Source of the DNA: Rikenellaceae bacterium
GTDB taxonomy: Bacteria; Bacteroidota; Bacteroidia; Bacteroidales; Rikenellaceae
Assembly (NCBI GenBank): GCA_047178725.1
Contig: JBCQTD010000007.1
Location: 4,903-68,902 of the forward strand
DNA: 64,000 nucleotides
Direction of reading: 5' to 3'
Positions 6,334-49,773 of the stretch are shown in pieces. The notes under the pieces are model-generated. The model was given only the letters and a program-made list of their open reading frames with translations. It ran no database searches and had not been told where the DNA came from. Within the stretch, counting starts at the first letter, position 1. Each line of letters begins with the position of its first letter. A program made the translations under genes and the position numbers.

Positions 6334-6500
6334 TAAGTAGGGTAAAATAATTATTGGTGTGTTTTTAAGAGTGCTATTGGAGATGAGATTTTTTGCTATT
6401 GAATTGAAAATATAGTGGTTCTATACTGAAATTTAATAGTGAAAAATATCGCTCCAAGAGTGCTTTTAAAAATATGGCAATAATTGTTTTACACTACTTA
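6334..6500 (+). mobile_element. MITE-like fold-back element, family A copy 1 (167 bp including terminal TA)
   Basis: Ends TAAGTAGGGTAAAATAATTATTG / CAATAATTGTTTTACACTACTTA; reverse complement matches 11697-11863 with 3 differences. Confidence 0.85.
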
Positions 6501-6542
6501 TTAATACTCGGCAAGCTCACCATGAGGATAGACATAAACATC

Positions 6543-6574
6543 AAAGTCTACCCCGAAAGTTCGAGGCAGGCTTT
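6543..6574 (-). terminator. Probable intrinsic terminator of the beta-barrel gene
   Basis: Minus strand AAAGCCTGCCTCGAA-CT-TTCGGGGTAGACTTT imperfect hairpin. Confidence 0.5.
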
Positions 6575-6605
6575 AAATATTAAGACCTCCTTACCAAGAG
6601 GGTTA

Positions 6606-7361
6606 CTATAGTTTAACTACGATGTTAAGCGATGAATTCCAAACATAGCCGATTGGATGCTCATCATAAGGCATGCCATCTACTGAGCCCGCAAAAGCGT
6701 TAAGGCCTGTTTGCAAACGCGCCTGAACACGCTTAGAGAGTCTAAAGCTTAAAGCTACATCCACACCGGCGCCAAATACTACATCTGGATTATCGACCTG
6801 TGTAGCAACAGCTAGGCCGCTATCCTTGTATGAGATCTCGGCATCAATATAGGCTGCATAAAGCGAAGGGATGATCAAGAATCCGACACGAGAAAACTGC
6901 GAACTGCGACCAAAGAAATCAATAGGCAGATGAACGCCCAGCTGATAGATGTCGCTATTTGAGATCAGCTCGCTATACTGAGGTATATCAAGGCCGGCGA
7001 GCGGAGCGAAATATCTCTTTCCGTCCCACAAGTAGTAGCCACTGCAGCACTCGCTTGTTAGCGACTCGGTCATCATATAGCTCAACGATGCCTCAACCGC
7101 AAATGTATAATTAAGCTTGTAGCCAGCCATAACTCTACCATTATAGCCCAGATTGACACCTTCCGAGTTAAACGACTCAAAGGTAGACTGAATGAAGCTA
7201 ACGCCACCTCCAGCGCCAACATACCAGCGCGAGGGCGAAGCAAAAGAGTCGAATCCAGCAGAATTAACTGACGCTGCCCCAGAAGATTCGACACCTTGAG
7301 CCGAGGCGAAGCCGAAAGTAGAGGCCAAAACCACCATCAGTGATAGGATTTGTCTTTTCAT
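6606..7361 (-). CDS. Outer-membrane beta-barrel protein (OmpA-like membrane domain)
   Basis: Signal peptide (MKRQIL...ASA), alternating aromatic/Gly strands (WYVGAGGG, AGYKLNYTFAVEAS, FGAGVDVALSFRL), C-terminal beta strand. Confidence 0.7.
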   Translation of the reverse strand: MKRQILSLMVVLASTFGFASAQGVESSGAASVNSAGFDSFASPSRWYVGAGGGVSFIQSTFESFNSEGVNLGYNGRVMAGYKLNYTFAVEASLSYMMTESLTSECCSGYYLWDGKRYFAPLAGLDIPQYSELISNSDIYQLGVHLPIDFFGRSSQFSRVGFLIIPSLYAAYIDAEISYKDSGLAVATQVDNPDVVFGAGVDVALSFRLSKRVQARLQTGLNAFAGSVDGMPYDEHPIGYVWNSSLNIVVKL

Positions 7362-7684
7362 AAGTTTGAAGTTTATCATTTGTTAGTTATTAGTTTCAAA
7401 AATCATGTTAAAAATAGAGCCTACATTCCTCCGCCGGCCGAGGGAGACCTCGAACCGAGCGCAACAATACACATATCCATCTAAAACACAGAGGATTACC
7501 CCAAAAGGCTCATCCACACATATATTCCTGACCACGAATTTAAACATTTTTTTTTAACTATCACAATAATTTCATCCAAATTTAAGAATTATTTGATCTT
7601 TTTATAAAAACAGCTCCTGCCGAGAGAAGTAATAGAGCCAAAATTTTGATCTTAAGAATAGTATTATTATCTTGCAAAGACTAA

Positions 7685-7845
7685 GAATCTGTTTAAGTTT
7701 TTCTGCTTAAAAATGCTATGCGCTATTTTGCTTTGATTTTGGATTTTGATATCGCAGCTAATAGCGGGCTATTTGCAAGATAGCAAAATCCAAAAGCGAA
7801 GTGAAAGAGCCTTAGCATTTTAGTGAGAAAAACTTAAACAGATCC
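7685..7845 (+). mobile_element. MITE-like fold-back element, family B copy 1 (161 bp, TAA target duplication)
   Basis: TIR GAATCTGTTTAAGTTTTTCT / AGAAAAACTTAAACAGATCC, flanked on both sides by TAA; same ends as 49623-49773. Confidence 0.8.
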
Positions 7846-7860
7846 TAAAACCTTTAAACT

Positions 7861-9354
7861 ATGAAACACCTTCTATTTTGTGCGCTACTTGCGCTATTCA
7901 ATCTTCAGGGTTTTGGAGCTAACCAAATCGACAAATTAGTTGACACCTCGCTTAAATCGGAGAAAATTACCCCATCCGAGATATGCAGCGATGAGGTCTA
8001 TGTCCGTCGACTTTACCTTATCCTTATAGGTAAGCTCCCCACCGCAAATGAGGCTATCGAATTTATTGATTCAGAGAGCAAAACCAAACGAAAAGATCTT
8101 GCCACTAAGTTACTATCAACCACCGACTACGTCGATTTTCAAGTGGTTAAATGGGGCGATCTACTAAAGATTAAATCGGAGTTTCCAAGTAATCTATGGC
8201 CTAATGGCGTCCAAGCGTATAATCGCTGGGTGCGAGAGAAAATTAGCGCCAACACCCCCTACGACCAATTCGTGCGTGACCTATTACTCTGTTCGGGGAG
8301 CAACTTCCGTACTCCACAGGTCAACTTCTATCGCGCCTTCGTGACGCGCACCCCCGAAACTATAGCCGAAAATGTGGAGATGCTATTTCTCGGCTCGCGC
8401 ACTCTATCAAAAGAGGCTCCTATCTTCTTCTCGCAGGTGAAGTATAAGAGCAGCGGCGAGTGGAAAGAGGAGATCGTATATACCGACCTTGATATCGCAC
8501 CTGAGGTATCGCTTGTGACGATGAGCGATGGCAAAAAAATAACCCTCAACGAGCGAGAGGATCTCCGCGAGAGCTATGTAGCGTGGCTTACATCTAAAGA
8601 GAACCGACAATTTGCACGCGCCATGGCCAATCGCATATGGTACTGGATGATGGGACGCGGCGTGGTTCACGAGGCGGATGATTTTAGGGCAGACAACCCA
8701 GCCTCAAATCCCAAATTGCTAGAGCATCTCACCGACGAGTTTATCAAGAGCGGATACGACATTCGCAAGCTTATGGCGATGATCGTCGAGAGCAATACAT
8801 TCCAACGCAGCTCAATAAGTAATGAGAGCAACAAGAGTGATGTAGCGCTCTTCTCGCACTACCCCACAATTCGCCTCACAGCCGAGCAGATTATCGACGG
8901 GCTCTCTGCCTTGACTGGTATTAATGATAGGTATGTGAGCCGAGTGCCTGAGCCCTACTCATACTACCCCTCTGATATGACATCGACAGATATCGGGGAT
9001 GCAACTGTATCATCTCCGCAGCTGGATCTTTTTGGTCGCCCATCACGAGATTTCTCGCTCGAGAATCAGAGGGTTAACGACCTTAATAGCAAGCAGACTC
9101 TATACCTATTAAATGCCACAAGTATAAATACTAAAATCTCAACCAGCAAACTCATCACCCAAATGGTCGAGAAGCAGGAGAGCCGCGAGGATGTGATCCG
9201 CGAGATCTACCTTATGATGCTCTCGCGCCGCCCCTCTGCCGAGGAGACAGCCGCGATACTCTCCTATGTGAAGAGCAACCAGAGCATGCGTGCCATGGCG
9301 AGCGATCTAATTTGGGCGATGCTCAACTCTCCAGAATATCTATTCAACCACTAA
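7861..9354 (+). CDS. DUF1549/DUF1553 (PSCyt2/PSD1) domain exported protein
   Basis: SDEVYVRRLYL..GKLPT, PYDQFVRDLL, FARAMANRIW..MMGRGVV, NPKLLEHL..EF..SGYD, RLTAEQIID, FGRP, WAMLNSPEYLFNH resemble Planctomycete DUF1549/1553 proteins. Confidence 0.85.
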   Translation: MKHLLFCALLALFNLQGFGANQIDKLVDTSLKSEKITPSEICSDEVYVRRLYLILIGKLPTANEAIEFIDSESKTKRKDLATKLLSTTDYVDFQVVKWGDLLKIKSEFPSNLWPNGVQAYNRWVREKISANTPYDQFVRDLLLCSGSNFRTPQVNFYRAFVTRTPETIAENVEMLFLGSRTLSKEAPIFFSQVKYKSSGEWKEEIVYTDLDIAPEVSLVTMSDGKKITLNEREDLRESYVAWLTSKENRQFARAMANRIWYWMMGRGVVHEADDFRADNPASNPKLLEHLTDEFIKSGYDIRKLMAMIVESNTFQRSSISNESNKSDVALFSHYPTIRLTAEQIIDGLSALTGINDRYVSRVPEPYSYYPSDMTSTDIGDATVSSPQLDLFGRPSRDFSLENQRVNDLNSKQTLYLLNATSINTKISTSKLITQMVEKQESREDVIREIYLMMLSRRPSAEETAAILSYVKSNQSMRAMASDLIWAMLNSPEYLFNH

Positions 9355-9365
9355 AAAGAGATACT

Positions 9366-11699
9366 ATGAAACGCATATTATTCACCGCTATGCTCATCGC
9401 TCTCTCAATAGGGGCGGCATTAGCACAGAAGATAAATATAGGGTATATATACCCATCAGGGGCAGCCAGGGGCACAAGCTCCATTATAACTATAGGCGGC
9501 CAGAGCATCAGCACCGCAACCGGTGTGTCGATAAGCGGCAGCGGCGTAACCGCCGAGGTTATACCCCCTTCGGCTGAAGATCTAGCGGCTCAAAACAAAA
9601 ATAAGAGAAAGAAGATCTCCGACGAGGATAATCTTCAAATCGCACAGAAGCTGGTCATAAAGGTGACCGTGGCACCAGATGCCGAGCTTGGCATGCGCGA
9701 TATGAAAGTTATTGGCGCTAAGGGCGACCTATCAAATAGGCTCTTTTTTGAGATTGGCGAATATGTAAATTTTGTTGAGAGCGAGCCAAACAACACATTC
9801 GAGACATCAAACAAGATCCCATCCCTACCAACGACCATCTGCGGCTATGTAGAGAAGAGCTCTGTATCGGGATCAACCGAGACCAAGGGTGGCGGCGTGG
9901 ATATAGAGCTTGGAGGAAAGGATTTCTTCGAGTTTGAGGCTAAAAAGGGGCAGACGATCGTCGCCGAGACTAAGGCCGAGGTTTTTGTCCCATACCTTGC
10001 TGATGCTGTACCTGGATGGTTTCAGGCGGTTATCTCCCTCTATGATGAGAGCGGCAGCGAGGTTGCATTTTGCGACGACTACAACCTGCGTCCCGACCCG
10101 GTTTTAATCTACACAATCCCCAAAAACGGAAAATATACCCTCAAGATTCACGACTCGATCTATCGCGGTCGCGAGGATTTTGTATATCGCATCAACCTTG
10201 GCGCTATCCCATATGTAACCTCTATATTTCCACTCGGCGGATTGCTAGACAGCAAAACTAGTGTCGCCATCAAGGGTGTAAATCTCACGGATGAGTCGAT
10301 GGTAATAGAGCCAACAAACGCTCTGGATTACAAAGATACCTACCGCTACAAAAATGCCAACGGCCACCATAGCAACGAGATAACTTTCGCCGCGCAAAAG
10401 GGCAAAAAGGAGATTATACGCCCAGTTGGCTCGAATGACAAATCAAACCCCACATCACTAGATTTAGGCCATATCATCAACGCACAAATTCTTGAAAAGG
10501 GCGAGTGCCATTGGTATAAAATCCACGCAAATGTTGGAGATGAGCTATTTATTAAGGTTACTGGTCGCCGCCTAGGCTCACCTATTGATGCCCTTATGTG
10601 CATCTACTCGCCCAGCGGAGAACTTGTGGCTAAGATTGACGATGTGCCGGACGATAGCGAGGGTATGATTACCCACCAAGCCGACCCTGAGATCGTTCAT
10701 AAATTCAAGAATAGCGGCGATTTTCTGATTCGCATCACCGAGCAGCAGAACAACTTCGGCCCGGAGTACAGCTATCGACTATCGGCCGATGTAGCTAAGC
10801 CCGACTTCTCGCTTAACATCGAACCATCTAGCATATCTATACCGCAGTCGGGCACAGCGCTATTCACTGTTTTTGTCAACCGCAATGGCGGATTCAACCA
10901 GCCTGTGGCACTTAAATTTGAGGGGCTACCCAAGGGTTATACGGTTAGTGACGAGGTTATCTCTCCGGCGGCTAAATATCGCAAAATAGCGATCACAGCC
11001 CCAAAAGATGCCAAACTAGGCAAACTAAATCTTCAAATATTTGGTGAGTCGGTTGGCAAAGGTGGTGAGGTGCTGCGCCATCTTGCAAAGCCCGTTGAAG
11101 AGCTCAAGCAGGCTTTCTACATCAGCCATCTACTTACGACCGAGGCCTTTGATGTGGATATTGTCCACGCACAGCAGTTCTATATAACATTCGCCCCAGC
11201 GGAGGGCAGTGGCGATAAGATAGTGTTAAATCCCGATGGCATAACCCCAATAAAGGTTATCCTGCACCGCCAAGAGGGGTTCAACGAACCGGTGATGATC
11301 TCGGCAAAATTCAAGGTTAAGAATGTATCCTTCCAAGGAATAACCATTGATGGAGATAAATCTGAGGGGATAATCATGCTTGACACCAAGAGCTGGAAGC
11401 CCAATAGATTATGGCTTCAACTTATGATTCTGGGCACCGTAAAATCAAAAGCGGTGAATGTTGCCGGAATAGCCAAAAACACGGTGATATCATCGGTAAT
11501 GGTTAACAGTCCATTTATTGAGATTGATTTCCCCTCAGAGATGAATATTCCTTTCCCCTACTTTATGCGAGAGGGGTGGTTTGATAAACTTATAAACCAA
11601 GCAAAGGCAAAGGGCAGCAACGCCACCAAACAGTATGATAACAAAAACCAACAATCCAGAATAGAGGCTGCAAAAAAGAGTCAGACTCAAACCAAATAA
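9366..11699 (+). CDS. Exported PPC (pre-peptidase C-terminal)-repeat protein of Planctomycete type
   Basis: Signal peptide from ATG 9366; IGYIYPSGAARG, ESEPNN, DFFEFEAKKGQ, DSIYRGREDFVYR, GRRLGSPID, ADPEI, PDFSL motifs. Stop codon TAA coincides with the end of element A copy 2. Confidence 0.75.
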   Translation: MKRILFTAMLIALSIGAALAQKINIGYIYPSGAARGTSSIITIGGQSISTATGVSISGSGVTAEVIPPSAEDLAAQNKNKRKKISDEDNLQIAQKLVIKVTVAPDAELGMRDMKVIGAKGDLSNRLFFEIGEYVNFVESEPNNTFETSNKIPSLPTTICGYVEKSSVSGSTETKGGGVDIELGGKDFFEFEAKKGQTIVAETKAEVFVPYLADAVPGWFQAVISLYDESGSEVAFCDDYNLRPDPVLIYTIPKNGKYTLKIHDSIYRGREDFVYRINLGAIPYVTSIFPLGGLLDSKTSVAIKGVNLTDESMVIEPTNALDYKDTYRYKNANGHHSNEITFAAQKGKKEIIRPVGSNDKSNPTSLDLGHIINAQILEKGECHWYKIHANVGDELFIKVTGRRLGSPIDALMCIYSPSGELVAKIDDVPDDSEGMITHQADPEIVHKFKNSGDFLIRITEQQNNFGPEYSYRLSADVAKPDFSLNIEPSSISIPQSGTALFTVFVNRNGGFNQPVALKFEGLPKGYTVSDEVISPAAKYRKIAITAPKDAKLGKLNLQIFGESVGKGGEVLRHLAKPVEELKQAFYISHLLTTEAFDVDIVHAQQFYITFAPAEGSGDKIVLNPDGITPIKVILHRQEGFNEPVMISAKFKVKNVSFQGITIDGDKSEGIIMLDTKSWKPNRLWLQLMILGTVKSKAVNVAGIAKNTVISSVMVNSPFIEIDFPSEMNIPFPYFMREGWFDKLINQAKAKGSNATKQYDNKNQQSRIEAAKKSQTQTK

Positions 11700-11863
11700 G
11701 TAGTGTAAAACAATTATTGCCATATTTTTAAAAGCACTCTTAAAGCGATATTTTTCACTATTAAATTTCAGTATAGAACCACTATATTTTCAATTCAATA
11801 GCAAAAAATCTCATCTCCAATAGTACTCTTAAAAACACACCAATAATTATTTTACCCTACTTA
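11697..11863 (-). mobile_element. MITE-like fold-back element, family A copy 2 (inverted relative to copy 1)
   Basis: 164/167 identical to the reverse complement of 6334-6500 by manual alignment. Confidence 0.85.
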
Positions 11864-11910
11864 AGAAGAGAGGTTGCCAAAGATGTTTCGATGGCAACCT
11901 CCCTCTTTTT
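11864..11910. terminator. Bidirectional intrinsic terminator
   Basis: AGAAGAGAGGTTGCCA...TGGCAACCTCCCTCTTTTT between convergent genes. Confidence 0.8.
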
Positions 11911-11927
11911 ATCACATGGTGGCCGCT

Positions 11928-14747
11928 CTACTCGGGCATCATCACAACCTCTAGTCTATTCCCATCTTCGATAATCTTACTCAGCAGAGCGCTCACATCC
12001 TCCGGAGTGATCGACTCAACAGTTGGCCTATAGCTATTTACATAGTCGAAGCCATACTCATACCATCGCGAGATAAAGCGCCCCCATCCCATATTACTTT
12101 GCAGCGAATTGTCATAATTCTTCACCATCGCGCTACGCACTTTATTCATCTGCGAGGCGGCTGGAGGGGTGTTGCTCAAGCTCTTTAGCTCGCTCTCTAT
12201 TGTGGCAACAAGATCATCAACCTGCTCCCTATTTGTGTCGAAACTAAATCGGAGATTGTAGCTCGCAATAGGATAGTCTGTTGTGGAGGCAGATATCCCA
12301 ACTCCATAGGTGCCCCCCTTCTGCTCGCGCACCTTGTCAAAAAATATCTCATCGAGTATATCCTTTAAATATGCCATCGTGATATTTCCTTTAAGCGTAT
12401 AGGCCATCTCGCCCCAATAGTTGATCGTGGCGCTCGCCTTGGGCTGCTGCATAGCAACCGCGAAACTATCGCTATGGCTACCAGAGATCTTTCGCACCAG
12501 ATCATCCTTTCGCGATATCTTCTGCTCTGCTGCCGGCAAAGAGCCTATATACTTCTCGACAAGCGGGCGCAGAGTATCCAAATCTACATTGCCAATAATT
12601 GTAAAGCGAAAATTTGCCCCCGCACCAAATAGCCTCTTATGCAGAACTGGCAGCGACTCAAAATTCAGAGCTTCTATAATCCCCTGCGAGAGTGGCTGTT
12701 TACGCGGATTATTAGCATATAACCTCTGCACGAAGTGCTCGCTCATCTTACTATCTGGATCACTTGCCATATTCGAGACATAGGAACCAAGCTGACGCTT
12801 GAATGTGGCCAAGTCGGCCTCGTCGAATCTAGGCGATGTGAAGTTAAGATATAGCAGCTGCAATAGAGTCTCAATATCCGCCGGCGAACTAGAGCCCGAG
12901 CCACCATTTGCATAGTCGTCAACCCAGAGCGACAGCCCGGCAATCTTGCCCGAGAGCATCTTGCCTAGATCAATAGAGCTAAACTCCGACAAACCAGAGC
13001 TCGCCATTATAGATGGGAGGTATAGTGCACAATGATAGTCGGCATCTGTGGCCAACGAAGCGCCGCCCTCGGAGGAGAACGATAAGAGCACCTCATCACT
13101 CTTAAGTTGTGAAGGTTTCACCACAACAACAGCGCCATTACCAAGCCTCCACTCCACTGTGCCGAGCGTCTGATTCTCCTCACTCTCAGCCACTAGAGAG
13201 CCTTCCAACGCTGAGATATCCTCGATAAGCTCCTGGGCAATATGCTCATCCTGATATGGCTCAAGCTCCTCCACCCTAGCATCTAGAAGTATCTGCAACA
13301 CCTCATCCTCGGTTGGGTTTACTACGCCCTCCTTCTCGGGCGCAGAGATCGCCACCACAACATTTTCATCTACGAGCAAACGCTGCGCCAGCTTATTTAT
13401 ATCGGCAAGGGTTATGCTACTAATTATAGTGCTGTCCAACTGCCACTTAGCCTCGGCGGATGGGATCGACTCATTATATCTGAAGTGGTCGATATAGCCA
13501 TCTATGAAGCTACTATTAAATCGGTCATTTCTATTTAGATACTCCCTCTCGGCTCCTCGCATCAAGCTCTGCTTAGCGCGTTGAAACTCACCCTGGGTGA
13601 AGCCATAGCGTTTAAGTCGCTCTATTTCACAAACAAGGGCTTTGAAGGCGAGCGGCAGGTGGCCATCCTCGCTCTCGGCCGATATAACTGTTGCCTCCAT
13701 GGTGGGGATCACACCTAGCAAGCCACCACCCATCGAGGCATACAAGAATGGCGCATCAGGCTGATTTGATATCTCATCAAAACGGCTGCGCTGCATAACG
13801 CTCATATATCTCATGCTCATATCCAACATCGCACTAAATGTATAACCACGCGAGAGTCTATCCAACGCCCGGCGCTTGATATAGTAGCCGATGGATGAGT
13901 ATTGCATCTCGGGATCAGTATAGATAGATATTATAGGCTCTTTATTATCGGCGACGATAATCTCCTCCTTCTGCGGAGCGTCGGCCATGGAGCGCGGTAT
14001 ATCGGCCAACATTGCCAAAAGTTTCTTCTCAACAAGATCCACATCTACATCTCCCACGATAATTATCGCCTGGTGCTCAGGGCGATACCACTTATGATAA
14101 AATTCATCCAACGACTCAGGCGCAAATGTCCTAAGCCCCTCTAGATAGCCGATAATATTTCTATGCTCATACTTGGTGCCTTTAGCCAACGCCTTAACCA
14201 ACGCCATCATTGAGCGCCAATCGGCATTATCCCTAGTGCGGAGCTCTTCGCTGATAACACCTCGCTCCTGCTCTAGATCCTCAAGGGTGGGTTCGATAAA
14301 ATATGACCAATCATGCAGTATCATAAGTACACTATCCACCACCGACTCCCTTTCGACAGGCACATCGGTGATCATATATTGCGTCACATCCCAGCTAGTC
14401 GAGGCATTGAGATTAGAGCCAAACGAAACCCCAATACTCTGAAGGTAGTCGTCAATAAGCCCATCGGGGAAGTGCTTGGTGTTTTTAAATGCCATATGCT
14501 CCAGAAAATGCGCCAGCCCCTGCTCGCTATCATCCTCCTGGATAGCCCCCACATCAAATACTATATAAAAATCTGCCTGTGCTTTGGGTTTGGCATTATG
14601 GCGAATATAGTAGCTCGTGCCATTTGCTGCCACGCCATATCTCAACTCGGGATCACGCTCAATAGGCGCAATGGGGTTTAGCTGCGCTATGGCGGCCAGA
14701 ACCGAGAGGCTCAGCGCCAAAATAGCTATTAGTGTTCTCTTCTTCAT
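11928..14747 (-). CDS. M16 family zinc protease (PqqL-like), exported
   Basis: GLAHFLEHMAF inverted zincin, NAST, signal peptide, VREQKGGTYG C-terminal motif. Confidence 0.93.
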   Translation of the reverse strand: MKKRTLIAILALSLSVLAAIAQLNPIAPIERDPELRYGVAANGTSYYIRHNAKPKAQADFYIVFDVGAIQEDDSEQGLAHFLEHMAFKNTKHFPDGLIDDYLQSIGVSFGSNLNASTSWDVTQYMITDVPVERESVVDSVLMILHDWSYFIEPTLEDLEQERGVISEELRTRDNADWRSMMALVKALAKGTKYEHRNIIGYLEGLRTFAPESLDEFYHKWYRPEHQAIIIVGDVDVDLVEKKLLAMLADIPRSMADAPQKEEIIVADNKEPIISIYTDPEMQYSSIGYYIKRRALDRLSRGYTFSAMLDMSMRYMSVMQRSRFDEISNQPDAPFLYASMGGGLLGVIPTMEATVISAESEDGHLPLAFKALVCEIERLKRYGFTQGEFQRAKQSLMRGAEREYLNRNDRFNSSFIDGYIDHFRYNESIPSAEAKWQLDSTIISSITLADINKLAQRLLVDENVVVAISAPEKEGVVNPTEDEVLQILLDARVEELEPYQDEHIAQELIEDISALEGSLVAESEENQTLGTVEWRLGNGAVVVVKPSQLKSDEVLLSFSSEGGASLATDADYHCALYLPSIMASSGLSEFSSIDLGKMLSGKIAGLSLWVDDYANGGSGSSSPADIETLLQLLYLNFTSPRFDEADLATFKRQLGSYVSNMASDPDSKMSEHFVQRLYANNPRKQPLSQGIIEALNFESLPVLHKRLFGAGANFRFTIIGNVDLDTLRPLVEKYIGSLPAAEQKISRKDDLVRKISGSHSDSFAVAMQQPKASATINYWGEMAYTLKGNITMAYLKDILDEIFFDKVREQKGGTYGVGISASTTDYPIASYNLRFSFDTNREQVDDLVATIESELKSLSNTPPAASQMNKVRSAMVKNYDNSLQSNMGWGRFISRWYEYGFDYVNSYRPTVESITPEDVSALLSKIIEDGNRLEVVMMPE

Positions 14748-14806
14748 AGTGCAAATATAACTCAATATTTAGACAAATATTATCTGCTTACATGGATAAA
14801 TAAATA

Positions 14807-14830
14807 TGGGGCAACCCAAAAGCTGCCCCA
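14807..14830 (-). terminator. Hairpin downstream of TPR gene
   Basis: TGGGGCA...TGCCCCA stem followed by AT/T-rich tract on the minus strand. Confidence 0.55.
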
Positions 14831-14849
14831 CAATCTTAAGTTGATTAGA

Positions 14850-16229: not shown

Positions 16230-16330
16230 GTGTAAATTATTTTTTTTAATATGTTGTGCAAATGTAAACATAAATCGTTAGCTTCAAAATATATGACACC
16301 TCGAGAACATAACAATTCATACAACTTTAA

Positions 16331-19084: not shown

Positions 19085-19109
19085 GCAATATAGCTTTAAA
19101 TATATATCG

Positions 19110-28218: not shown

Positions 28219-28297
28219 AAAAAAACGCCCTGAACCACCTCGTTTATCGAATGATGGATCAGGGCAATTATAGGGGAGTTCTAATCTCTCCCCTATA
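28219..28297. terminator. Two adjacent hairpins between convergent genes
   Basis: GCCCTGA...TCAGGGC preceded by an A-run, and TATAGGGGAG...CTCCCCTATA. Confidence 0.6.
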
Positions 28298-36720: not shown

Positions 36721-37436
36721 GAGAGTGGTTAGAGCGAACGGAGCTCTTTATGGGAGAGGAGAAGCTAGCGCTGCTTCAAGGCGCAAATGTGCTCGTTGTA
36801 GGGCTAGGTGGCGTGGGGGCCTACGCCGCCGAGATGATTGCTCGCGCAGGAGTTGGCAGGATGACCATCGCCGATGCCGACAGAGTTGGCGCAACAAATA
36901 TTAATCGACAGCTGGTGGCTCTGCACTCAACTATTGGGTTAGAGAAGTCGGAGGTACTGGCCGCACGCCTTCGGGATATAAATCCCGAGATCGAGCTGAC
37001 TGTTATATCAAAATATATAAAGGATGAGCTGACCGATGAGCTGCTAGATAGCGCACAGTTTGACTACATAGTGGATTGCATAGATACCCTATCACCCAAA
37101 GTGGCACTCATCAAGGGGGCTCTAGATCGCGAAATTCCGCTCGTAAGCTCGATGGGCGCTGGAGCCAAGAGCGACCCGACGCTTATGGAGATCAAAGATA
37201 TATCAAAATCGCACCACTGCCCGCTAGCGCACATGCTGCGCAAACGTCTCCACAAGGTTGGCATCCGCAAGGGCTTCAAGGCGGTGTTCTCGCCAGAGCC
37301 TATCCGCGAGGGGGCGATGATTCTATGCGAGGAGCAGAACAAAAAGTCCAATGTAGGGACGATATCCTACATCCCCGCCCTCTTTGGCATCGGTTGTGCA
37401 TCGGTTGTAATACGTGATTTAATTGGTGAATTATGA
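36717..37436 (+). CDS. tcdA: tRNA threonylcarbamoyladenosine dehydratase (ThiF family)
   Basis: GLGGVG, TNINRQ, DCID, SSMGAG, CPLA..LRKRL, VFSPE. Confidence 0.88.
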   Translation: MREWLERTELFMGEEKLALLQGANVLVVGLGGVGAYAAEMIARAGVGRMTIADADRVGATNINRQLVALHSTIGLEKSEVLAARLRDINPEIELTVISKYIKDELTDELLDSAQFDYIVDCIDTLSPKVALIKGALDREIPLVSSMGAGAKSDPTLMEIKDISKSHHCPLAHMLRKRLHKVGIRKGFKAVFSPEPIREGAMILCEEQNKKSNVGTISYIPALFGIGCASVVIRDLIGEL

Positions 37437-38365: not shown

Positions 38366-38396
38366 TTAGCACAGAATTTGCTCTTGCTACAGCATC

Positions 38397-39254: not shown

Positions 39255-39286
39255 TTGCCGAGCTTATCACATTTATAGTCTCCTTT

Positions 39287-40813: not shown

Positions 40814-40824
40814 ATTTTTGAAAT

Positions 40825-43434
40825 TTATTTTATTTGACCTACAATCATCTCCATCGCTGCATCCATCGCCGCCTGCAATCCATCTGGATTTTTACCACCA
40901 GCCGTAGCAAGGAAAGGCTGACCGCCGCCGCCGCCCTGCATAAGCTTCGCGGCCTCGCGCACAACCTTCGAGGCGTTCACTCCGCGCTCTAGGATATCAT
41001 CACCTAGGGCAATTGTCAGCGCTGGCTTACCGCCAAGAACCGAGCCAGAGATAAAGATCACATTACGAGATTTTGCGCGCAACGCATAGGCTATATTCTT
41101 TACAAAATCTGGATGGCGAGAGAGCTTCGAGACGATGATCTTAGCACCAAAATTCTCCACAGCCTCAGCGAGCGAACGTGTAGACCACTCCTCAACCTGC
41201 TCCTTACGCATCTGCTCAACCTCCTTTGTGAGGCTATCGCTATTCTTCAAAACCTTCTTTAGCGCCTGAAGCACCTGAGGGTTATTTAGATACTCAGCGG
41301 CATCTTTCAGAGTCTCCTCGGCTGAGTAGATAATCTTCTCTGCATTGACTCCGGTTGTCGCCTCAATACGGCGCACACCGGCCGAGATTGCACTCTCAGA
41401 GATGATCTTAAAGAGACCGATATTTCCCGTTGCCGAGGTGTGAGTTCCACCACAAAGCTCCACCGACTCGCCAAAGCGAACCACGCGAACCTTGTCGCCA
41501 TACTTCTCACCAAAGAGCATCATAGCGCCCATCTCGCTAGCCTCCTCCATTGTCGCCTCACGGCGCTCATCCAGATTGAAGTTTGAGCGGATTTTAGCAT
41601 TCACCATCATCTCCACCTGGCGAAGCTCCTCGGCTGAGAGTTTCTGGAAGTGAGCAAAATCGAAACGGAGATGCTCCGAGCTCACAAGCGAGCCCTTCTG
41701 CTCAACATGCGTACCTAGCACCGAGCGCAAAGCCTCATGCAAAAGGTGCGTTGCAGAGTGGTTGTTAGATGATCGCTGACGCCTAGCGCTATCCACCACA
41801 GCGGTGAATGTTGCCGAGATATCCTCTGGCATCTGCGATACGATATGTAGAATAAGACCATTCTCCTTTTCGGTTGAGATGATCTCGATCTTATCGTTAG
41901 CAGTAGAGATATAGCCCACATCACCGAGCTGTCCTCCGGAGTTTCCATAGAATGGAGTCTGGTCAAAGACTAGCTGATAGTGGCTCTTACCCTTAGATGT
42001 AACCTTGCGATAGCGGGCGATCTTAACCTCAGCGGTGAGGTTATCATAACCGACAAACTCGCTCTGATTGATGGCGATAAGCTCCTGCCAATCATCCGTA
42101 TCCACCGCGGCAGCGTTACGCGAGCGCTCCTTCTGGATCTGTAGCTCGCGCTCAAACTCCTCCAAATCAACATCCACGCCCTGCTCCTTAGCGATAAGCT
42201 CGGTGAGGTCTATAGGGAATCCATAAGTGTCGTATAGCAAGAAGGCATCCTTGCCCGAGATCTTGCCATTGCACCCCTTGATAACATTATCCAAGAGGTT
42301 AATACCTGTAGCTAGAGTGCGAAGGAATGATGCCTCCTCCTCCTCGATAACCTTCTCTATAAGTGCACGCTGCGCAACAAGCTCGGGGAACTGAGTACCC
42401 ATCTGGGCAACCAACCCCTCAACAAGACGGCAGATAAATGGCTCGCTAAAACCAAGGTAGGTGTAACCATATCTCACCGCGCGGCGGAGGATACGGCGGA
42501 TAACATAACCCGCCTTAACATTTGATGGAAGCTGACCATCGGCGATCGAAAAGGCGATGGCGCGCAGGTGGTCGGCGATAACCCTCATTGAGATATCACA
42601 CTTTAGATCCTGACCATACACCTTGCCCGAGAGCTCGGCTATGCGACCTATGGTTGGCTGGAATACATCGGTATCATAGTTTGACTTCTTACCCTGCAAG
42701 ATCATACATAGACGCTCGAAGCCCATGCCGGTGTCGACATGCTTAGCGGGAAGTGGCTCAAGCGAACCGTTCGCCTTGCGATTGAACTGCATAAATACAA
42801 GGTTCCAGATCTCGATAACCAGCGAGTGACCCATATTTACCATATCACGTCCTGGCACGGCGGCGATATCAGCCTCGTCACGAAGGTCATAGTGGATCTC
42901 CGAACAGGGGCCGCAGGGGCCAGTCTCGCCCATCTCCCAGAAGTTATCATGCTTATTACCGCGGATAATGTGATCTGCAGGAAGATACTGCAACCAGAAA
43001 TCATACGCCTCCTGATCGAATGGCACCCCATCCTCCTCGCTACCCTCAAATACGGTAGCATAGATGCGGCTCTTATCCATACCATAAACACCCGTCAACA
43101 GCTCCCAGCCCCAGTCGATCGCCTCGCGTTTGAAGTAGTCGCCAAAAGACCAGTTGCCGAGCATCTCAAACATGGTGTGGTGATAGGTGTCGTGACCAAC
43201 CTCCTCCAAGTCGTTATGCTTGCCCGAAACACGCAAACACTTCTGGGTATCCGCCGCACGCGCCCACTTGCGAGGTGCATTACCTAGGAAAATATCCTTA
43301 AATTGGTTCATGCCAGCGTTGGTAAACATCAACGTTGGATCACCCTTTACGACCATAGGTGCAGATGGGACAATCGCGTGATCCTTAAGGGCGAAGAAGT
43401 CCAAAAATGCTTGACGAATTTTAGTTGATTCCAT
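40825..43434 (-). CDS. alaS: Alanine--tRNA ligase
   Basis: [51 protein letters not shown]. Confidence 0.99.
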
Positions 43435-43535
43435 TAATATAATTTTATCGTTTTTAATCGTTTTACTGTAACGGTTGCAAAATTAGACAAATTAAGCTAA
43501 ATTTGCACAATAATGAGTGGAGTTTTTTTAAGTAT

Positions 43536-44546
43536 ATGCTAGAAAAAGAGCAAGAATCAACAGCAAGCACTACTCCGACTAGAGAGTCGGAGTACTACGC
43601 AAGGCCTCGCCAATTTCGTATTGTGCGCAGGTTGCTCGTTGGCTTTATACTTATCTCGATAATAAATCTAATATTCTCATATCTATTTTACACCCCTAAA
43701 ATCTATATGCTTGATCGCGAAAACCACGCTGTGATAGACAAATACAATATCTTAAGAGAGAAGGTTCGAGTGCACGAGGCGAAGCTAGATGAGATAGCCC
43801 ACCGCGACAACCATGTATACCGCTCGCTTTTTGGCGTGGACACCTTGCCGCTTTGGCATGGAGAGGGAGAGGTTGTGATAAACAAAGCGCAACGCGAAGC
43901 TCTGCCCAACGAGCCATACGCTGCGATAATGGATAGAACATGGATAAACTTAGATCGTCTAGCGATGAATATCTACCGATTGTCCACCTCGCTAGATGAG
44001 CTTCAGGTGCTAGCCAAAAACAAAGAGGCTCTCTCGACCGCAATTCCAGCTCTTTGGCCTATCGACAAGACTCTGCTAAGGTATGGTATCGGAGCATATG
44101 GCATGCGTTTCCACCCAATATATAAGCGAAATATCATGCACCACGGCATTGACCTTGCATGCCCGACGGGCAGCCCAATCTACGCCACGGGCGATGGCAT
44201 AGTTGAAAAGAGTGTACAGGGATACAAATATCGCGGCTATGGACAGGAGGTGCTAATTGATCACCAATTTGGATATAAGACCCGATATGGCCATATGAGT
44301 AAGCGTCTGGTGGAGAAGGGCGACAAAGTAAAGCGCGGCGATATAATAGGCCTCATAGGTAGCACCGGAGGCTCTACAGGACCTCACCTGCACTATGAGG
44401 TGATAATCAACGGCAAAAGCGTAAATCCGATCAACTACTTCAACCGCAACATGAGCAACGAGGAGTATATCCAAATCATGGAGCAGATGCAGGATACCGA
44501 GTATGAGATTGTGGATCAAGCGATAAATGAAGATAACGAAAATTAG
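43536..44546 (+). CDS. M23 family peptidoglycan endopeptidase
   Basis: TM helix, coiled coil, HHGID, YGHM, STGPHLHYEV. ATG 43536 preferred because the ORF-track TTG lies inside the TAAATTTG -7 box. Confidence 0.92.
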   Translation: MLEKEQESTASTTPTRESEYYARPRQFRIVRRLLVGFILISIINLIFSYLFYTPKIYMLDRENHAVIDKYNILREKVRVHEAKLDEIAHRDNHVYRSLFGVDTLPLWHGEGEVVINKAQREALPNEPYAAIMDRTWINLDRLAMNIYRLSTSLDELQVLAKNKEALSTAIPALWPIDKTLLRYGIGAYGMRFHPIYKRNIMHHGIDLACPTGSPIYATGDGIVEKSVQGYKYRGYGQEVLIDHQFGYKTRYGHMSKRLVEKGDKVKRGDIIGLIGSTGGSTGPHLHYEVIINGKSVNPINYFNRNMSNEEYIQIMEQMQDTEYEIVDQAINEDNEN

Positions 44547-44549
44547 AGT

Positions 44550-45482
44550 ATGAGAAGAGGCAGAGAGAACCATTCGCAACCCGCAAATTTAATGCGCTCG
44601 CTACTCCATATACTAGTATGGATTGGCGCTGCCTCGCTCTATTACATAATCTTCTCACTACTATTTGACACTCCGGCCGAGCATGCGGTTCGCAAAAGCA
44701 CATATCGCCTAAAAGATGAATATGAGGTACTCTCGGCACGCTACGACTCGTTGACGATGGCAATGGAGAGCCTCACCGCTCGCGATAGGAATATCTTTCA
44801 GATCATGTTTGACTCAAACCCATACGATCTAAGCTCGCAGCGCACCAGCGAACGCCTTGCCGAGTATGAATATCTACTATCGCTCCCCTCGAAGGCTCTA
44901 GGCATGGAGTTTGACTCGCGCCTGGCATCGCTAGAGAAGAGCACCGGCGAGCTCTATAAAAGAAGCCTCTCGATGGTAGAAAAAATAGAGGCAAAGGGGA
45001 GTGCAAGCAGGAAGATACCTGCCATTCAGCCAATCATTAACGACAAGCTCACCCTTCTGACTGCATCATATGGAATGCGCATCCACCCATTCTACAAAAC
45101 CCTCGTCTCGCACCAAGGGGTAGACTACACCGTGCCCGAGGGAACTCGTATCTTCGCCACGGCCGACGGCGTGGTGAAGAGCGTTGTCCTCTCGCACTCA
45201 ACCCTAGGCAAAAATATGGTCATCGACCACGGCAACGGCTATCAGACCGCCTTTACAAATATGGGGCGAATAAACATACCCGCAGGCAGGAGCGTTAAGC
45301 GAGGCGATATTATAGGACTGACGGGAAACACCGGCTTCTCGATCACCCCCCACCTGCACTACGAGGTGCGATATAACGAGGCGCGAGTAGACCCCATTCA
45401 CTACTTCTTCATGGAGCTTACCCCGGGCGATTATCAGAGAATGATAAGGATAGCACAATCAGGAATGCAATCATTTGACTAA
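44550..45482 (+). CDS. M23 family peptidase paralog
   Basis: HQGVD, PHLHYEV, same architecture as the upstream gene. Confidence 0.9.
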   Translation: MRRGRENHSQPANLMRSLLHILVWIGAASLYYIIFSLLFDTPAEHAVRKSTYRLKDEYEVLSARYDSLTMAMESLTARDRNIFQIMFDSNPYDLSSQRTSERLAEYEYLLSLPSKALGMEFDSRLASLEKSTGELYKRSLSMVEKIEAKGSASRKIPAIQPIINDKLTLLTASYGMRIHPFYKTLVSHQGVDYTVPEGTRIFATADGVVKSVVLSHSTLGKNMVIDHGNGYQTAFTNMGRINIPAGRSVKRGDIIGLTGNTGFSITPHLHYEVRYNEARVDPIHYFFMELTPGDYQRMIRIAQSGMQSFD

Positions 45483-45498
45483 ACAATTTACAATATAT

Positions 45499-46056
45499 AT
45501 GCAGACAAAACTACTACTTTTAGATTTCGATGGAACACTAGTCGACACACGCCAGGCAAACTACCGCGCCTATCGCGATGTGCTCGCGGAGATCCGTTTT
45601 GAGTTAGACGAGGCGGAGTATCTTCGCGACTTCTTTGGCATGAGATGTGGTGAATTTCTACGCCGTCTAGGTTTCACCGACTCATACGAGATTGACCGCA
45701 TGCGCCGCCGCAAGATAGAGATCTATCCCGAGCATTTCAACACCGTGGTGCTCAACGAGTGGCTTTGGGGGTTTGCTCAAGATTTCCGCCGCAATGGCGG
45801 TAAGGTGTGGATAGTATCCACCGGGCAAACCGTCAATATCAAGAATGTTATGCATCACTTAGGGCTCGAAAGCGAGATTGATGGTCTGATTACGGGCGCT
45901 GATGTCAAAGATAGCAAACCCTCACCCGAGTGCTTCCTAAAAGCTATGGCGGCCGAGATGGTTAAACCCGAAGAGGCTATTATATTTGAGGACTCGGTCG
46001 TTGGCCTTGAGGCTGCACTCAAGAGCGGCGCTCCATTTGTTAAAGTAAAATTCTAA
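45499..46056 (+). CDS. HAD-superfamily phosphatase (beta-PGM-like)
   Basis: DFDGTLVDT, ST, KPSP, FEDS motifs. Confidence 0.9.
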   Translation: MQTKLLLLDFDGTLVDTRQANYRAYRDVLAEIRFELDEAEYLRDFFGMRCGEFLRRLGFTDSYEIDRMRRRKIEIYPEHFNTVVLNEWLWGFAQDFRRNGGKVWIVSTGQTVNIKNVMHHLGLESEIDGLITGADVKDSKPSPECFLKAMAAEMVKPEEAIIFEDSVVGLEAALKSGAPFVKVKF

Positions 46057-46060
46057 AGAG

Positions 46061-46723
46061 ATGAAAGTAGCAATTATCCTAGCAGGCTGTGGAGCACAAG
46101 ATGGCTCCGAGATCCACGAGTCGACACTTCTACTCTATGCACTTAGCTCGGCGGGTGTAGAGTATGATATCTTCGCTCCAAATCGCGAGCAGGCCGATGT
46201 TATGAACTTCATTGAGGGCAACACTATGGCCGAGAAGCGCAATGTTTTAGTTGAATCGGCGCGTATTGCTCGTGGTGCCATACGCCAGATCACAGCTCTT
46301 GATGTTAACCTATATGATGGATTGATGCTACCCGGAGGCTTTGGCGCGGCAAAGAACCTTTTTACATTCGCCTTTGATGGGATAGAATTCTCAATCAAAG
46401 AGGATATACTAAAGATTGTTAACGACTTTCACTCTCAGGGCAAGGTGATAGGCGCCATGTGCATCGCGCCGCTTATGATCGCCAAGGCTTTAGGTCGCTA
46501 TGGCGTAGAGGTGACACTAGGCGCCGAGAGCGATCTCTGCGCTGCCGCACGCGAGGCGTTTGGAGCCAAGATAAGCACTTGCGCCCCTGATGGAGTGGTA
46601 GTTGACATAGAGAATAAGATCATCACCACCCCAGCATACATGTATGGTGATAACAGCGTGGCAGGAGTTGGAGCTGGTGCCCAGGCGCTAGTTGCGGAGG
46701 CTATAAAGTTAATGGCTCTCTAA
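46061..46723 (+). CDS. elbB: ElbB/ES1 glyoxalase (DJ-1/PfpI superfamily)
   Basis: GCGAQDGSEIHE, ESARIARG, PGGFGAAKNL, CIAP, TTPAYM. Confidence 0.93.
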   Translation: MKVAIILAGCGAQDGSEIHESTLLLYALSSAGVEYDIFAPNREQADVMNFIEGNTMAEKRNVLVESARIARGAIRQITALDVNLYDGLMLPGGFGAAKNLFTFAFDGIEFSIKEDILKIVNDFHSQGKVIGAMCIAPLMIAKALGRYGVEVTLGAESDLCAAAREAFGAKISTCAPDGVVVDIENKIITTPAYMYGDNSVAGVGAGAQALVAEAIKLMAL

Positions 46724-49546
46724 TCCGCAGATAGCTTTATAATCACAATAGGCGCATGTGTGGCTCTTGTCCTCGCACTGCACAAAAGGAGTTGATCGAT
46801 CAAACAGTTCGGTCAACTTCTCTTTTATATACCCCTCAAACTCCTCAGCATAGAGGCTATAGGCCTCAACGTTAGCCTTTCGACTGCGATCAACAAGCAG
46901 AGGTGAATAGTCATCACGATGCATAGCCCTCACATAGTAGAGCGATGGCAAAACCTCTCTATCTCGCCGCTTGTTGAGGATCATCGAGTAGAGCATGGTT
47001 TGTATGATATTCGACTGGCGCGCCTTGCCGTCGCCATTAAATAGATCCTCGATGCTGCTGAAGTCGGTATGCATAGCGCCACTCTTATAATCCACAACTC
47101 GCAGCTTACCGCCATCAAGAGTATCTAATCTATCCACAACACCACCCACGACAACCCTCTCTCCACTTGCGAGCTCAATAGGCAGATCTACACTGCTCTC
47201 TAGCGCTTCAACCACAAAGCCCCCGTTTTTGCTATCATAATTTAGCACTCCATTTTTGATGTATTTACAAACAATCTCCTTGATAAGCAGCAAATTACCA
47301 GAGTAGTCGTCCACTGCCGTGTCTCGCCCCTTAAGATAGTGTTCGCCGATGGCTGCCTCAACCGCACCCTCGACCTTGATCTTTAGAGCTGCAAAATCTG
47401 GATTAACAACCCCCACCACAGAATCATAGATACTCTGCAGAGCTGAGTGCAAAATATTACCAAACATCGAAGCATCTAGCTCATCATTAAGCTCATCGCC
47501 ACTTTTAATCTTAGCCAATGAGTAGAAGTAGAATCTCAGCGGGCAGGCGATATATCGAAAGAGTGCCGTGGGCGAGATCGCTTGGGGCGAGTCGAGATCA
47601 GTAAAGCGCGCTAGCTGCTTGGCAACCTCGCCCCGCTTCTGCACAACAATCTCTCGCCGCTCGGCGAGCGAGACATCTACACCCACCGAGGATCTTAAAA
47701 TCTTAAAATCGGTCTCATAATCTAGCTGATATATATATCTGCTAGCCTCGCCCGTGCTCTTTTCGTCGGCATGCGAGCTATAGATCATCCACACCCTCTC
47801 GGCTCGCTGAATAAGTCGATAGAAGTAGTAGCCAAAGACACCCTCATGGTGCTCGGGTGTTGGCAGAGAGTATGCCGCACGCAACCCCTGAGGGATATAG
47901 GAGTGCTGCCAGGTGCGATTGCCAGGGAAGTTGTCGTCGTTCATCGAGAGCAGAATTACATTTTTAAAGTCGAGATTTCTAGTCTCTAGAATACCCATAA
48001 CCTGCACACCCTCCAGCGGCTCACCCTCGTATGGTATACGCAGCGACTGTAGATATCGCCTAAGGAGCGAGTAGTAGATCTCATCGCTGAGCTCAATCTC
48101 ACAACTAAGAAGCGACTCCCGCAGCGAGGCGATCTCGTCGGCCATGTAGACCAAAAATTCAACAATCTCGTCACCCGTGGAGATATCCCTAGGCAGCTTT
48201 AAAACAGAGTCTATAACCGAGATAAGATAATCGGTTATTGATTGCCACCCGGCTCTCGCAACAAAAATCTCGCTATAGATCTCGCTTCGACCAAGAAGTG
48301 AGCCATCCACATATATCATCCTCTGGCCTACGATCTCATCTACAAGCTGAGTGGATAATCCTGCCGCTGCGCTATGTAGATAGGGGTGCGAGATAAGCCC
48401 CACAACATCCTCATGATAGAACTGCACACTCCCCGAACGCGACAGCCTACGGTGCTTTTGCAGCTCGACGAGCCGCTCAAGAAACGAATAGGCAAGCGAC
48501 AAGCGCAGAGGGTAGCCCATCGTAACATTCACCCCACCTATACTCTTAGGCAGAGCATATAATAGGGGAGTGAGCAAATTCTCGTCGGTGAGTACTATCG
48601 CCGTCTGCTTATCTATCTTCTCGCTTTGAGCTAGCTCCGAGATTATCGTCTCTACATATCTGCACTGTAGAGCATTCGATGCTGTAGCGATGGAGTATAT
48701 CGTTTTATCGCGTAGAAAATTATCGCAACTGATCTTGCCGCTAGGCGGAAATCTAAAGATATTATCACGAATAAACATGCCAGCCTCCTGCTCGCGATTC
48801 TCAACATAGTAGTTATCGTAATCCCAATAAAACTCCGCCCTGGCCTCAGATTTAAGGTGGTCGAAAAGCTTTGTCTCGCACTTAGATAGGGCATTAAACC
48901 CTGCCGCCACATAACCATAGGTAGCATCAATAGAGGCCTCGTCAGAGGCCAAGCGCTCCACCGCCAGGCGATGCACCATGCCGGCATAGCCAAAGCCCAA
49001 ATCGAGTAACCTCGCGCGATATTCATGATAGATATCCGCTAGCGATGACCATATAGAGATAAATTTCGACTGCTCGCCAGAGAGCGTTTTGCCGGTATGA
49101 AAAGTACCCCAAAATTTATTTATGATCTCTATCTGCTCGGTGGTTAAATATGACAGATCTGCCTCCAGCTCCTTAATATCAGCAACATTTGCAAACAGCA
49201 TCTTAGCATCGACCATATATTTATCTATCATATCAAAGTCGGCCAGCAGTACCTCTCCCCAGAAGTAGAAGCGATCAAAGCTCTCAGCATGATATTTTGA
49301 GTAGACTTTATACAACTCGGCGATAAGCCTAACTCTCTCGCCTACATATATGCCAGCCCCCTCCTGCATCATCTCATCAATAGTGCGATAACGAGGCTGC
49401 CATAGAGGGCGCGAGAGAAGACCCGCTAGAGCATCCTGAAAAAAGAGGCGCGCACGCCTAGATGGAAAGATGATATTTAGATTAGAGACGCCATCTCCAT
49501 GACGCTCATATAGCTCCGCGGCGAGCTCGGAAAGAAAACTACTCAT
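46709..49546 (-). CDS. AddB-like PD-(D/E)XK nuclease subunit
   Basis: FPSRRARLF, QVMGILETR.LDF, SPT...YIACP, GVVDRLD..VVDYKSG, C-terminal CAYCDYKAIC Fe-S ligands. Confidence 0.88.
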   Translation of the reverse strand: MSSFLSELAAELYERHGDGVSNLNIIFPSRRARLFFQDALAGLLSRPLWQPRYRTIDEMMQEGAGIYVGERVRLIAELYKVYSKYHAESFDRFYFWGEVLLADFDMIDKYMVDAKMLFANVADIKELEADLSYLTTEQIEIINKFWGTFHTGKTLSGEQSKFISIWSSLADIYHEYRARLLDLGFGYAGMVHRLAVERLASDEASIDATYGYVAAGFNALSKCETKLFDHLKSEARAEFYWDYDNYYVENREQEAGMFIRDNIFRFPPSGKISCDNFLRDKTIYSIATASNALQCRYVETIISELAQSEKIDKQTAIVLTDENLLTPLLYALPKSIGGVNVTMGYPLRLSLAYSFLERLVELQKHRRLSRSGSVQFYHEDVVGLISHPYLHSAAAGLSTQLVDEIVGQRMIYVDGSLLGRSEIYSEIFVARAGWQSITDYLISVIDSVLKLPRDISTGDEIVEFLVYMADEIASLRESLLSCEIELSDEIYYSLLRRYLQSLRIPYEGEPLEGVQVMGILETRNLDFKNVILLSMNDDNFPGNRTWQHSYIPQGLRAAYSLPTPEHHEGVFGYYFYRLIQRAERVWMIYSSHADEKSTGEASRYIYQLDYETDFKILRSSVGVDVSLAERREIVVQKRGEVAKQLARFTDLDSPQAISPTALFRYIACPLRFYFYSLAKIKSGDELNDELDASMFGNILHSALQSIYDSVVGVVNPDFAALKIKVEGAVEAAIGEHYLKGRDTAVDDYSGNLLLIKEIVCKYIKNGVLNYDSKNGGFVVEALESSVDLPIELASGERVVVGGVVDRLDTLDGGKLRVVDYKSGAMHTDFSSIEDLFNGDGKARQSNIIQTMLYSMILNKRRDREVLPSLYYVRAMHRDDYSPLLVDRSRKANVEAYSLYAEEFEGYIKEKLTELFDRSTPFVQCEDKSHTCAYCDYKAICGLESH

Positions 49547-49622
49547 ATAGATCACTATTTAAGAGGACAAGATAGCGAAAAAGAGCGAGCTATCAAAAGA
49601 GATTAATAATTTTTATTGTTGA

Positions 49623-49773
49623 GAATCTGTTTAAATTTTATTCATCTTTTTTGTTAAGGATCTTTCACTTATACAATCCGTTACATAGTCCCGCTATGCG
49701 CCTCTTGTAAAAAAAAGAAAATATAAGCAAAATCTCTCTTAACAAAATTAGCGAACAAAACTTAAACAGATTC
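49623..49773 (-). mobile_element. MITE-like fold-back element, family B copy 2 (151 bp, TGA target duplication)
   Basis: TIR GAATCTGTTTAA / TTAAACAGATTC flanked on both sides by TGA; ends match 7685-7845, interior diverged. Confidence 0.8.

Follow-up and report, generated by a model that had tools for sequence, protein, structure and literature searches.

Why should mobile elements whose ends belong to different transposases share one central hairpin? This question is raised by a 64-kb stretch of DNA from a Rikenellaceae bacterium (GenBank assembly GCA_047178725.1, contig JBCQTD010000007.1, positions 4903-68902; G000:C7:4903-68902 in our numbering, and called the window below), in which four intergenic fold-back elements, two of a family A and two of a family B, pair with themselves along almost their whole length. 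The source genome, G000, comprises 1.89 Mb in 64 contigs and is 81% complete, and the region is present in sequencing runs labelled fish gut. A first-pass annotation of the window had proposed that these elements represent a class of hairpins of ~160 nt that act as RNA or single-stranded DNA, with a common apex read by a shared factor and ends taken from different transposases. We report that a shared, strand-specific core of fixed length does occur with the ends of three insertion sequence (IS) families, IS630, IS5 and IS1182. [quoted passage not shown]

Results

The two A elements have IS630-type ends. A1 (6336-6498) lies between TA duplications at 6334-6335 and 6499-6500 and has an apical stem-loop at 6411-6425 (+ strand), with the stem ATAG/CTAT and the loop TGGTT. 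A2 (11699-11861) is an inverted copy of A1 with 98% identity; its TA duplication (11697-11698 and 11862-11863) overlaps the stop codon of an open reading frame (ORF) at 9312-11699, and its apex, also with the loop TGGTT, lies at 11772-11786 on the - strand. The two B elements have IS5-type ends and 3-bp duplications: TAA at 7682-7684 and 7846-7848 for B1 (7685-7845), and TGA at 49620-49622 and 49774-49776 for B2 (49623-49773). The apical stem-loop of B1 (7760-7773, +) has the loop CGGG. B2, which is flanked by two divergent helicase/nuclease genes, belongs to a subfamily of 165 nt but has lost part of it and measures 151 nt; it bears the signature of the class on the - strand (49679-49703), an internal loop AGGCG/TAACG around a CATAG/CTATG apical stem (apex 49684-49698). 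The first-pass annotation had the positions of the four elements right, as well as those of their ends, duplications and apices; its limits for A take in both TA copies.

The predicted folding strand (+ for A1 and B1, - for A2 and B2) folded better than its complement in all four elements, in agreement with the earlier assignment. Folding energies on the two strands were -73.9 and -41.3 kcal/mol for A1, -69.9 and -33.2 for A2, -70.9 and -62.0 for B1, and -55.4 and -35.3 for B2. Compared with shuffled sequences, z was -15 for A1 with RNA parameters and -5.9 for B2 with DNA parameters.

Defining a full-length copy by at least 90% coverage and at least 80% identity, we detected 79 copies of A in the source genome and 26 of B (B1, 11; B2, 6; B3, 3; B4, 6). 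A third family, C, had 4 full-length copies and further partial ones (G000:C3:101349-101512, C4:50703-50864, C21:3661-3822 and others); it is a fold-back of ~160 nt with GGGGAG ends, 4-bp duplications and a GTAG/CTAC or ATAG/CTAT apex. A remnant of C, absent from the first-pass annotation, is present in the window at 28273-28293 (no strand assigned), collapsed to 21 nt with GGGGAG ends and TATA on each side. Most copies of the three families were 161-168 nt long. Duplications of TA, as expected of an IS630 derivative, flanked 76 of the 78 scored copies of A, and 3-bp and 4-bp duplications were seen in 22 of 26 copies of B and 3 of 4 copies of C. No copy fell within an ORF called by simple criteria. 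Families A and B are thus short, non-coding, multicopy and intergenic, with terminal inverted repeats and target duplications, as MITEs are. As many as 38 of the 128 contig ends of the assembly fell in A, B or C, and in practice these repeats break genome assemblies.

The apical stem ATAG/CTAT closes every family, in C mostly as GTAG/CTAC; by itself it is strand-symmetric. Loops were variable: among the 79 copies of A, TTATT occurred in about half (40 exact) and TGGTT in ~33, while those of B were CGGG, CGGGA, CGGTGC and CAATAG. The expectation that the apex would be more conserved than the arms was barely borne out within A (0.96-1.0 for the stem and 0.97 for the arms, with two loop positions near 0.5), and across families it held for the stem and failed for the loop. 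The arms carried many more G.T than A.C mismatches on the folding strand (832:46 in A, 56:18 in B1, 47:7 in B2, 20:5 in B3, 62:17 in B4 and 30:4 in C, counts that pool non-independent copies), so that the two mismatches are unequal per strand, as had been anticipated. The folding strand had also been described as independent of the direction of neighbouring genes. This held loosely. B showed no bias (10 sense and 8 antisense in tandem gene contexts); A leaned antisense, both in tandem contexts (18 sense, 31 antisense; p=0.085) and where it follows a stop codon by at most 60 nt (13 sense, 29 antisense; p=0.02).

We then looked for the core beyond the source genome. A search of GTDB with the B ends alone and a length window of 149-176 nt listed 109 elements in 108 loci, of ~160 stretches estimated. 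These were 156-173 nt long, 98 of them falling at 162-165 nt, and 88 had a 3-bp duplication. ATAG/CTAT was central in 93 of the 109; others had ATGG/CCAT or ATAC/GTAT, that is, compensated apices. Diverged families under the labels Bacteroidaceae, Cytophagales, Fluviicola, Flavobacteriaceae and Oscillospiraceae had unrelated arms and kept the rod, at least two of the matches (L079 and L091) being misfits. B1-like copies elsewhere bore both loops of A, TGGTT and TTATT. G.T exceeded A.C in 106 of the 109 elements, which we do not use as evidence because their strands were chosen by folding energy. A search of 300 genomes of the order with A-type ends gave mostly chance matches, a reversed control being as frequent, and true families only in G437 and G308. 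Those IS630-type-ended families, found by their ends alone, had the same internal loop, with AAGGC and TAACG in the arms; a short stem separates it from a CATA/TATG apex.

The converse search, of metagenomes with the B2-B4 apex and internal loop as the pattern, returned ~4,900 stretches, of which 123 loci with 124 matches were listed. Sufficient flanking sequence was available for 94, and 83 of these lay in a fold-back, many of ~160 nt. The motif strand folded better in 82 of the 83, and G.T outnumbered A.C in 61, with the reverse in 13. The consensus ATAG-YGG(N)1-2-CTAT suggested for the apex survived in its stem; the YGG loop did not, because loops differ between families and copies (YGG at the start of only 39 of 124 loops, a spacer of 4-6 nt, and 64 different loops). 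The free base pair of the apex pattern covaried perfectly, with 109 A-T, 15 C-G and no mixed pairs among the 124. Double changes were found in 36 of the 42 pairs of 59 cores, which exceeded all shuffles and slid controls, a count inflated by relatedness. The elements had many kinds of ends. The commonest is the one that IS1182 elements have on the left, and CTAG is duplicated beside it; two viral loci carried that left end together with an IS1182 ORF. Because automatic end calling was noisy, giving false palindromic duplications of 2-4 bp, only cases with CTAG or TNA duplications were used; these measured 157-161 nt.

A covariance model (R1) was built from the 59 metagenome cores. Its four best matches in the window were the four elements, each on the predicted strand: B2 (-) at 38.7 bits, partly by construction, A1 (+) at 34.2 bits (E 4e-7), A2 (-) at 27.6 and B1 (+) at 22.3, which is marginal against generic hairpins. 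The next was the opposite strand of B1, at 14.5 bits. Rfam 15 gave nothing in the window at the gathering threshold, and below it, with an E-value threshold, generic hairpin matches only (3 and 20 loci). The best-conserved feature of the class is the internal loop below the apex, of which A and B1 carry a degenerate form only. The core is very probably a single ancestral module whose fold is under selection.

Which transposases match the ends? The window holds no cognate transposase, as had been noted; elsewhere in the genome, however, IS5 and IS630 sequences match or are related to the ends. An IS5-family element (NF033580), which lies in two parts on contigs C58 and C41 and is bounded by TAA on both sides, was identical to the ends of B2 at 15 of 17 and 16 of 17 positions, and the left end of an IS5 in another genome (G228) equalled B1 over the first 16 bases (19/24 overall). 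Family B therefore combines the ends of an autonomous IS5 with a 3-bp duplication, as expected of an IS5 derivative. For A, 3' remnants of IS630 (NF033545) were found on C17 and C6, with a right end identical to that of A at 17 of 25 positions, and a full IS630 in G437 had its first 10 bases in common with A (15/25 overall). The partner found thus matches in the case of B and is related in that of A. On the basis of ends and duplications, A and B would almost certainly be mobilised in trans by such DDE transposases. A search for a full IS630 in viral contigs gave one weak match, and no matching transposase for C was identified. Neither a Y1 transposase (PF01797) nor a reverse transcriptase (RVT_1) was matched in the 81% complete source genome. 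Two apex matches were found in viral contigs, and the five ORFs flanking one of them had no NCBIfam match. In C17, a copy of A adjoins an IS630 3' remnant without its 5' part, followed by an integrase-like frame (G000:C17:33052-33483 = L001:1341-1772).

Family A was 95-99% identical in four other genomes of the same bacterial family (G017, G228, G091 and G078, the last from another genus). It was missing from 35 of the 36 genus members of a first draw. An orthologous housekeeping enzyme of G017 is only 57% identical, and the disparity points to recent horizontal spread of A. In G078 and in G228, which is another species, copies of A with 95-99% identity ran to dozens, and composites of A within A at the apex were among them. 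Nested insertions into A clustered at positions 78-96 (A at the TA sites 78, 80 and 89; insertions of B at 84-86 and 94-96; those of C at 83-86), and one junction lay at position 40. In some of these cases a single composite may have been copied. Where B and C were the targets, insertions lay in the arms near the ends, and the apical hot spot therefore belongs to A. Symmetric internal deletions were also observed. A composite of outer ends and an inner apex, shortened by such a deletion, would yield a core with new ends.

Filled and empty sites were compared at B1. Relatives of the gene flanking B1 were mostly 64-79% identical over short stretches; the ends of A and B were absent at 7 of 7 loci, which were not alignable base by base. 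None of 150 genus members was close enough to offer empty sites.

Several further features of the window were recorded. B1 and A2 bracket a DUF1549/DUF1553 gene that is followed by one of 795 aa (7861-11699, +). Such genes are more familiar from Planctomycetota, but these have relatives across the genus. At 58652-62860 (-), an ORF of 1402 aa contains two tandem peptidase M3 domains, with repeats ~2,091 bp apart. An AT-rich inverted repeat with 42-nt arms lies between divergent genes at 1754-1839, and resembles back-to-back Bacteroidota promoters.

Discussion

Bacterial MITEs are described as forming long stem-loops (PMC2229807, PMC3184786), and A and B resemble those mobilised in trans, such as RUP/IS630-Spn1, Correia/NEMIS, Nezha and Chunjie, in their length (100-200 bp), IS-like terminal repeats, target duplications, intergenic placement, high copy number and long predicted stem-loop (PMC2229807, PMC3184786, PMC10969869). 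They differ in that, in the accessible parts of these sources, each family is treated alone and its core is regarded as a product of IS decay or a private motif, with no one-stranded core across IS630, IS5 and IS1182. Our wider literature search, which covered few subscription journals, gave no description of a core shared across IS families.

A likeness was found in an element between aceF and lpd of E. coli, which we take to be ERIC from its near match to the ERIC2 primer and its 13 matches in E. coli K-12. It folds back over its whole length, and in the 11 copies with a located apex one strand always folded better, with AAGG on the 5' arm in 11 and [TG]AACG on the 3' arm in 8; mismatches were skewed 21:1 for G.A and 11:0 for G.T. 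The AAGG/AACG loop and a single better strand are therefore common to ERIC copies, B2-B4 and the class, the loop being degenerate in A and B1. ERIC differs in its length (~127 bp, compared with 161-168 nt here), its ends, its apex (CTTAC/GTAAG) and the position of the loop motif, ~24 nt further from the apex, and R1 gave an ERIC copy 8 bits. It is likely a relative, and not a member of the same family. ERIC/IRU/RU-1 measures 127 bp and YPAL/RU-2 168 bp. The source genome also contains D-type hairpin repeats, several of them in tandem arrays with units of ~115-120 nt, whose apex (CATAC/GTATG or CGTAC/GTACG, then TGA) is nearer to that of ERIC (G000:C3:4255-4552, C12:46142-46362, C40:12-215, C1:95006-95246, C9:10121-10234 and C14:5-119).

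Two systems that operate on folded single strands were also compared. The attC sites of integrons are imperfect palindromes that work as a folded strand with a G:T and purine skew (PMC5027507); they have RYYYAAC/GTTRRRY ends, cassette arrays, a tyrosine recombinase and no duplication, unlike the DDE-type ends and duplications seen here. A and B, whose ends and duplications were read directly, are not attC sites. REP/REPIN repeats are intergenic hairpins read as single-stranded DNA by a separate enzyme, RAYT, and are 20-40 bp long with a GTAG/CGTC tag at the foot (PMC3733652). Identity with these is excluded by size and ends, and PF01797 was not found in the 81% complete genome. CGTC-type REP repeats are nevertheless abundant there, and form mosaic clusters with three or four other units (families F, G and H; G000:C17:4357-4933, C23:9397-9594 and many other loci), for which a Y1 transposase was not found.

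In what form would the core be read? Among 38 motif-oriented representatives, we counted isolated mismatches, defined by two Watson-Crick pairs on each side: G.T 60, A.C 20, G.A 26, C.T 6, G.G 8, C.C 2, A.A 4 and T.T 9. Addition of 14 B-ended families and 6 from the source genome, whose strands were picked by energy or seed, gave 94:26 for G.T:A.C, 51:6 for G.A:C.T, 13:2 for G.G:C.C and 7:11 for A.A:T.T. The skews were 38:6 and 67:22 over distinct contexts, and extended to the outer 25 nt. A bias from deamination alone would not produce G.A mismatches. With Turner parameters for RNA, G.U has an advantage of 4.1 kcal over A.C, and G.A one of ~0.0 (-0.01) over C.U, whereas DNA parameters favour G.T over A.C by 1.6 kcal and G.A over C.T by 1.35. 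The advantage of G.A in DNA and not in RNA tilts the balance slightly towards single-stranded DNA as the folded form; the mismatch skew only leans that way. The lack of a preference for the sense strand and the similar skew of attC hairpins (PMC5027507) lean likewise. Contigs from two RNA runs covered A and B, with a depth that was summed over repeats, strandless and open to DNA carry-over, and hence uninformative.

Selection of the core as RNA is a possible, if doubtful, alternative. A rod in a read-through transcript might be cut by a nuclease or bound by an RNA-binding protein and so alter mRNA stability, a role for which the proposals made for ERIC, NEMIS and YPAL offer a precedent (PMC2229807, PMC10969869). 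The predominance of G.T among mismatches, a slight excess of U.U over A.A (9:4) and the 42 placements of A at most 60 nt from a stop codon are compatible with it. The folding strand, however, runs antisense at most of these placements (29 of the 42) and in most tandem contexts of A (31 of 49), RNA energies fail to account for the G.A skew, and a benefit to the host accounts poorly for one length and one motif over three transposase families. It is improbable that the core reflects neutral descent, in which nested insertion passes it on and template-switch correction keeps the arms complementary, with no shared factor. Template switching in quasi-palindromes gives compensatory Watson-Crick changes without selection; nested composites and symmetric internal deletions were indeed observed, and within A the apical stem is barely more conserved than the arms. 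Neutral descent would not predict that the G.T and G.A skews go with the direction in which an invariant unpaired motif points, that length is constant at ~160 nt, or that ERIC has the same motif.

Two other explanations appear less probable still. If a reverse transcriptase read the apex, the element could be copied through RNA and its cDNA integrated by a resident transposase, which would suit a single folding strand and a motif independent of the transposase. This is very unlikely given that the 81% complete genome has no RVT_1 match and that duplication length follows the transposase family, making the extra step unneeded. No more credible is a double-stranded protein site at the centre, where a bending protein or a tyrosine recombinase would bring the ends together. 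In its favour, the apex forms a dyad whose distance to either end is fixed, and it loosely resembles a dif site. The 155-bp Correia element contains an IHF site (PMC2229807), which would be a parallel. Against such a site, the spacer varies from 4 to 6 nt with 64 different loops among the 124 matches, the halves of the internal loop are non-complementary and are shifted outward by a paired stem in the G437 and G308 elements and in ERIC, and the skew is strand-specific. Resemblances of the apex to dif, sso CS-6, a CsrA loop or a kink-turn were dropped, as loop length and sequence vary freely.

The reading we prefer, tentatively as a whole, is that MITEs with IS630 and IS5 ends, moved by those transposases, carry a core that folds as single-stranded DNA and is read by a common factor. 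A and B, of ~160 bp, would be moved in trans by IS630-type and IS5-type transposases, while the shared central hairpin would fold on one strand and be recognised by a putative factor that helps copies to survive or spread. If so, the old puzzle of the ERIC-type repeats would become open to experiment. The fold may act during single-stranded phases, either conjugative entry into a new host or passage of the replication fork, which is the least secure step; there, it could serve as a signal for protection or second-strand priming, the transposase then acting on the duplex ends. Ends have probably been exchanged when one element inserted at the apex of another and the composite was then shortened by symmetric deletion or reshaped by template switching.

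A number of observations weigh against this reading. Unrelated hairpins scored 19-21 bits with R1, close to the 22 of B1, so that A is well supported and B1 marginal, and the AGGCG/TAACG loop is not recognisable in A. A sequence-only hidden Markov model of the same cores missed A, B1 and C (nor did it reach ERIC), a filtered genome-wide search with R1 gave 19 matches with only 2 copies of A and none of B1 or C, and when 120 further genomes of the phylum were searched, scoring 30 candidates in each, a single one had an R1 match; either the class is patchy or the model is narrow. The G.A skew stands without a natural-RNA control and comes from representatives that are not phylogenetically independent, and it does not differ significantly from the G.T skew (Fisher p=0.18). 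With respect to GC skew (A 25:42, B 13:10), only 25 of 67 copies of A had their folding strand on the G-rich strand, likely the template of lagging-strand synthesis, whereas a benefit from folding at the fork predicts the opposite. No exact IS630 partner for A was found, the remnant in the source genome and the G437 copy being related only. No base-level empty site and no binding factor were found.

A bolder extension, which we consider rather unlikely, is a cross-phylum superfamily of single-stranded DNA rods, ERIC included, that hijack the ends of unrelated DDE transposases (IS630, IS5, IS1182 and others) and whose one conserved internal-loop and apex motif recruits a universal host protein during single-stranded transfer. 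The life cycle of MITEs would then have a second layer that is independent of the transposase.

Cut-and-paste transposases read ends only, and a core that is constant in length, fold and strand across three of their families therefore points to an unknown spreading step. The core provides a concrete motif for mutation and for protein fishing, and connects these elements with the problem of what makes repeats of the ERIC type fold.

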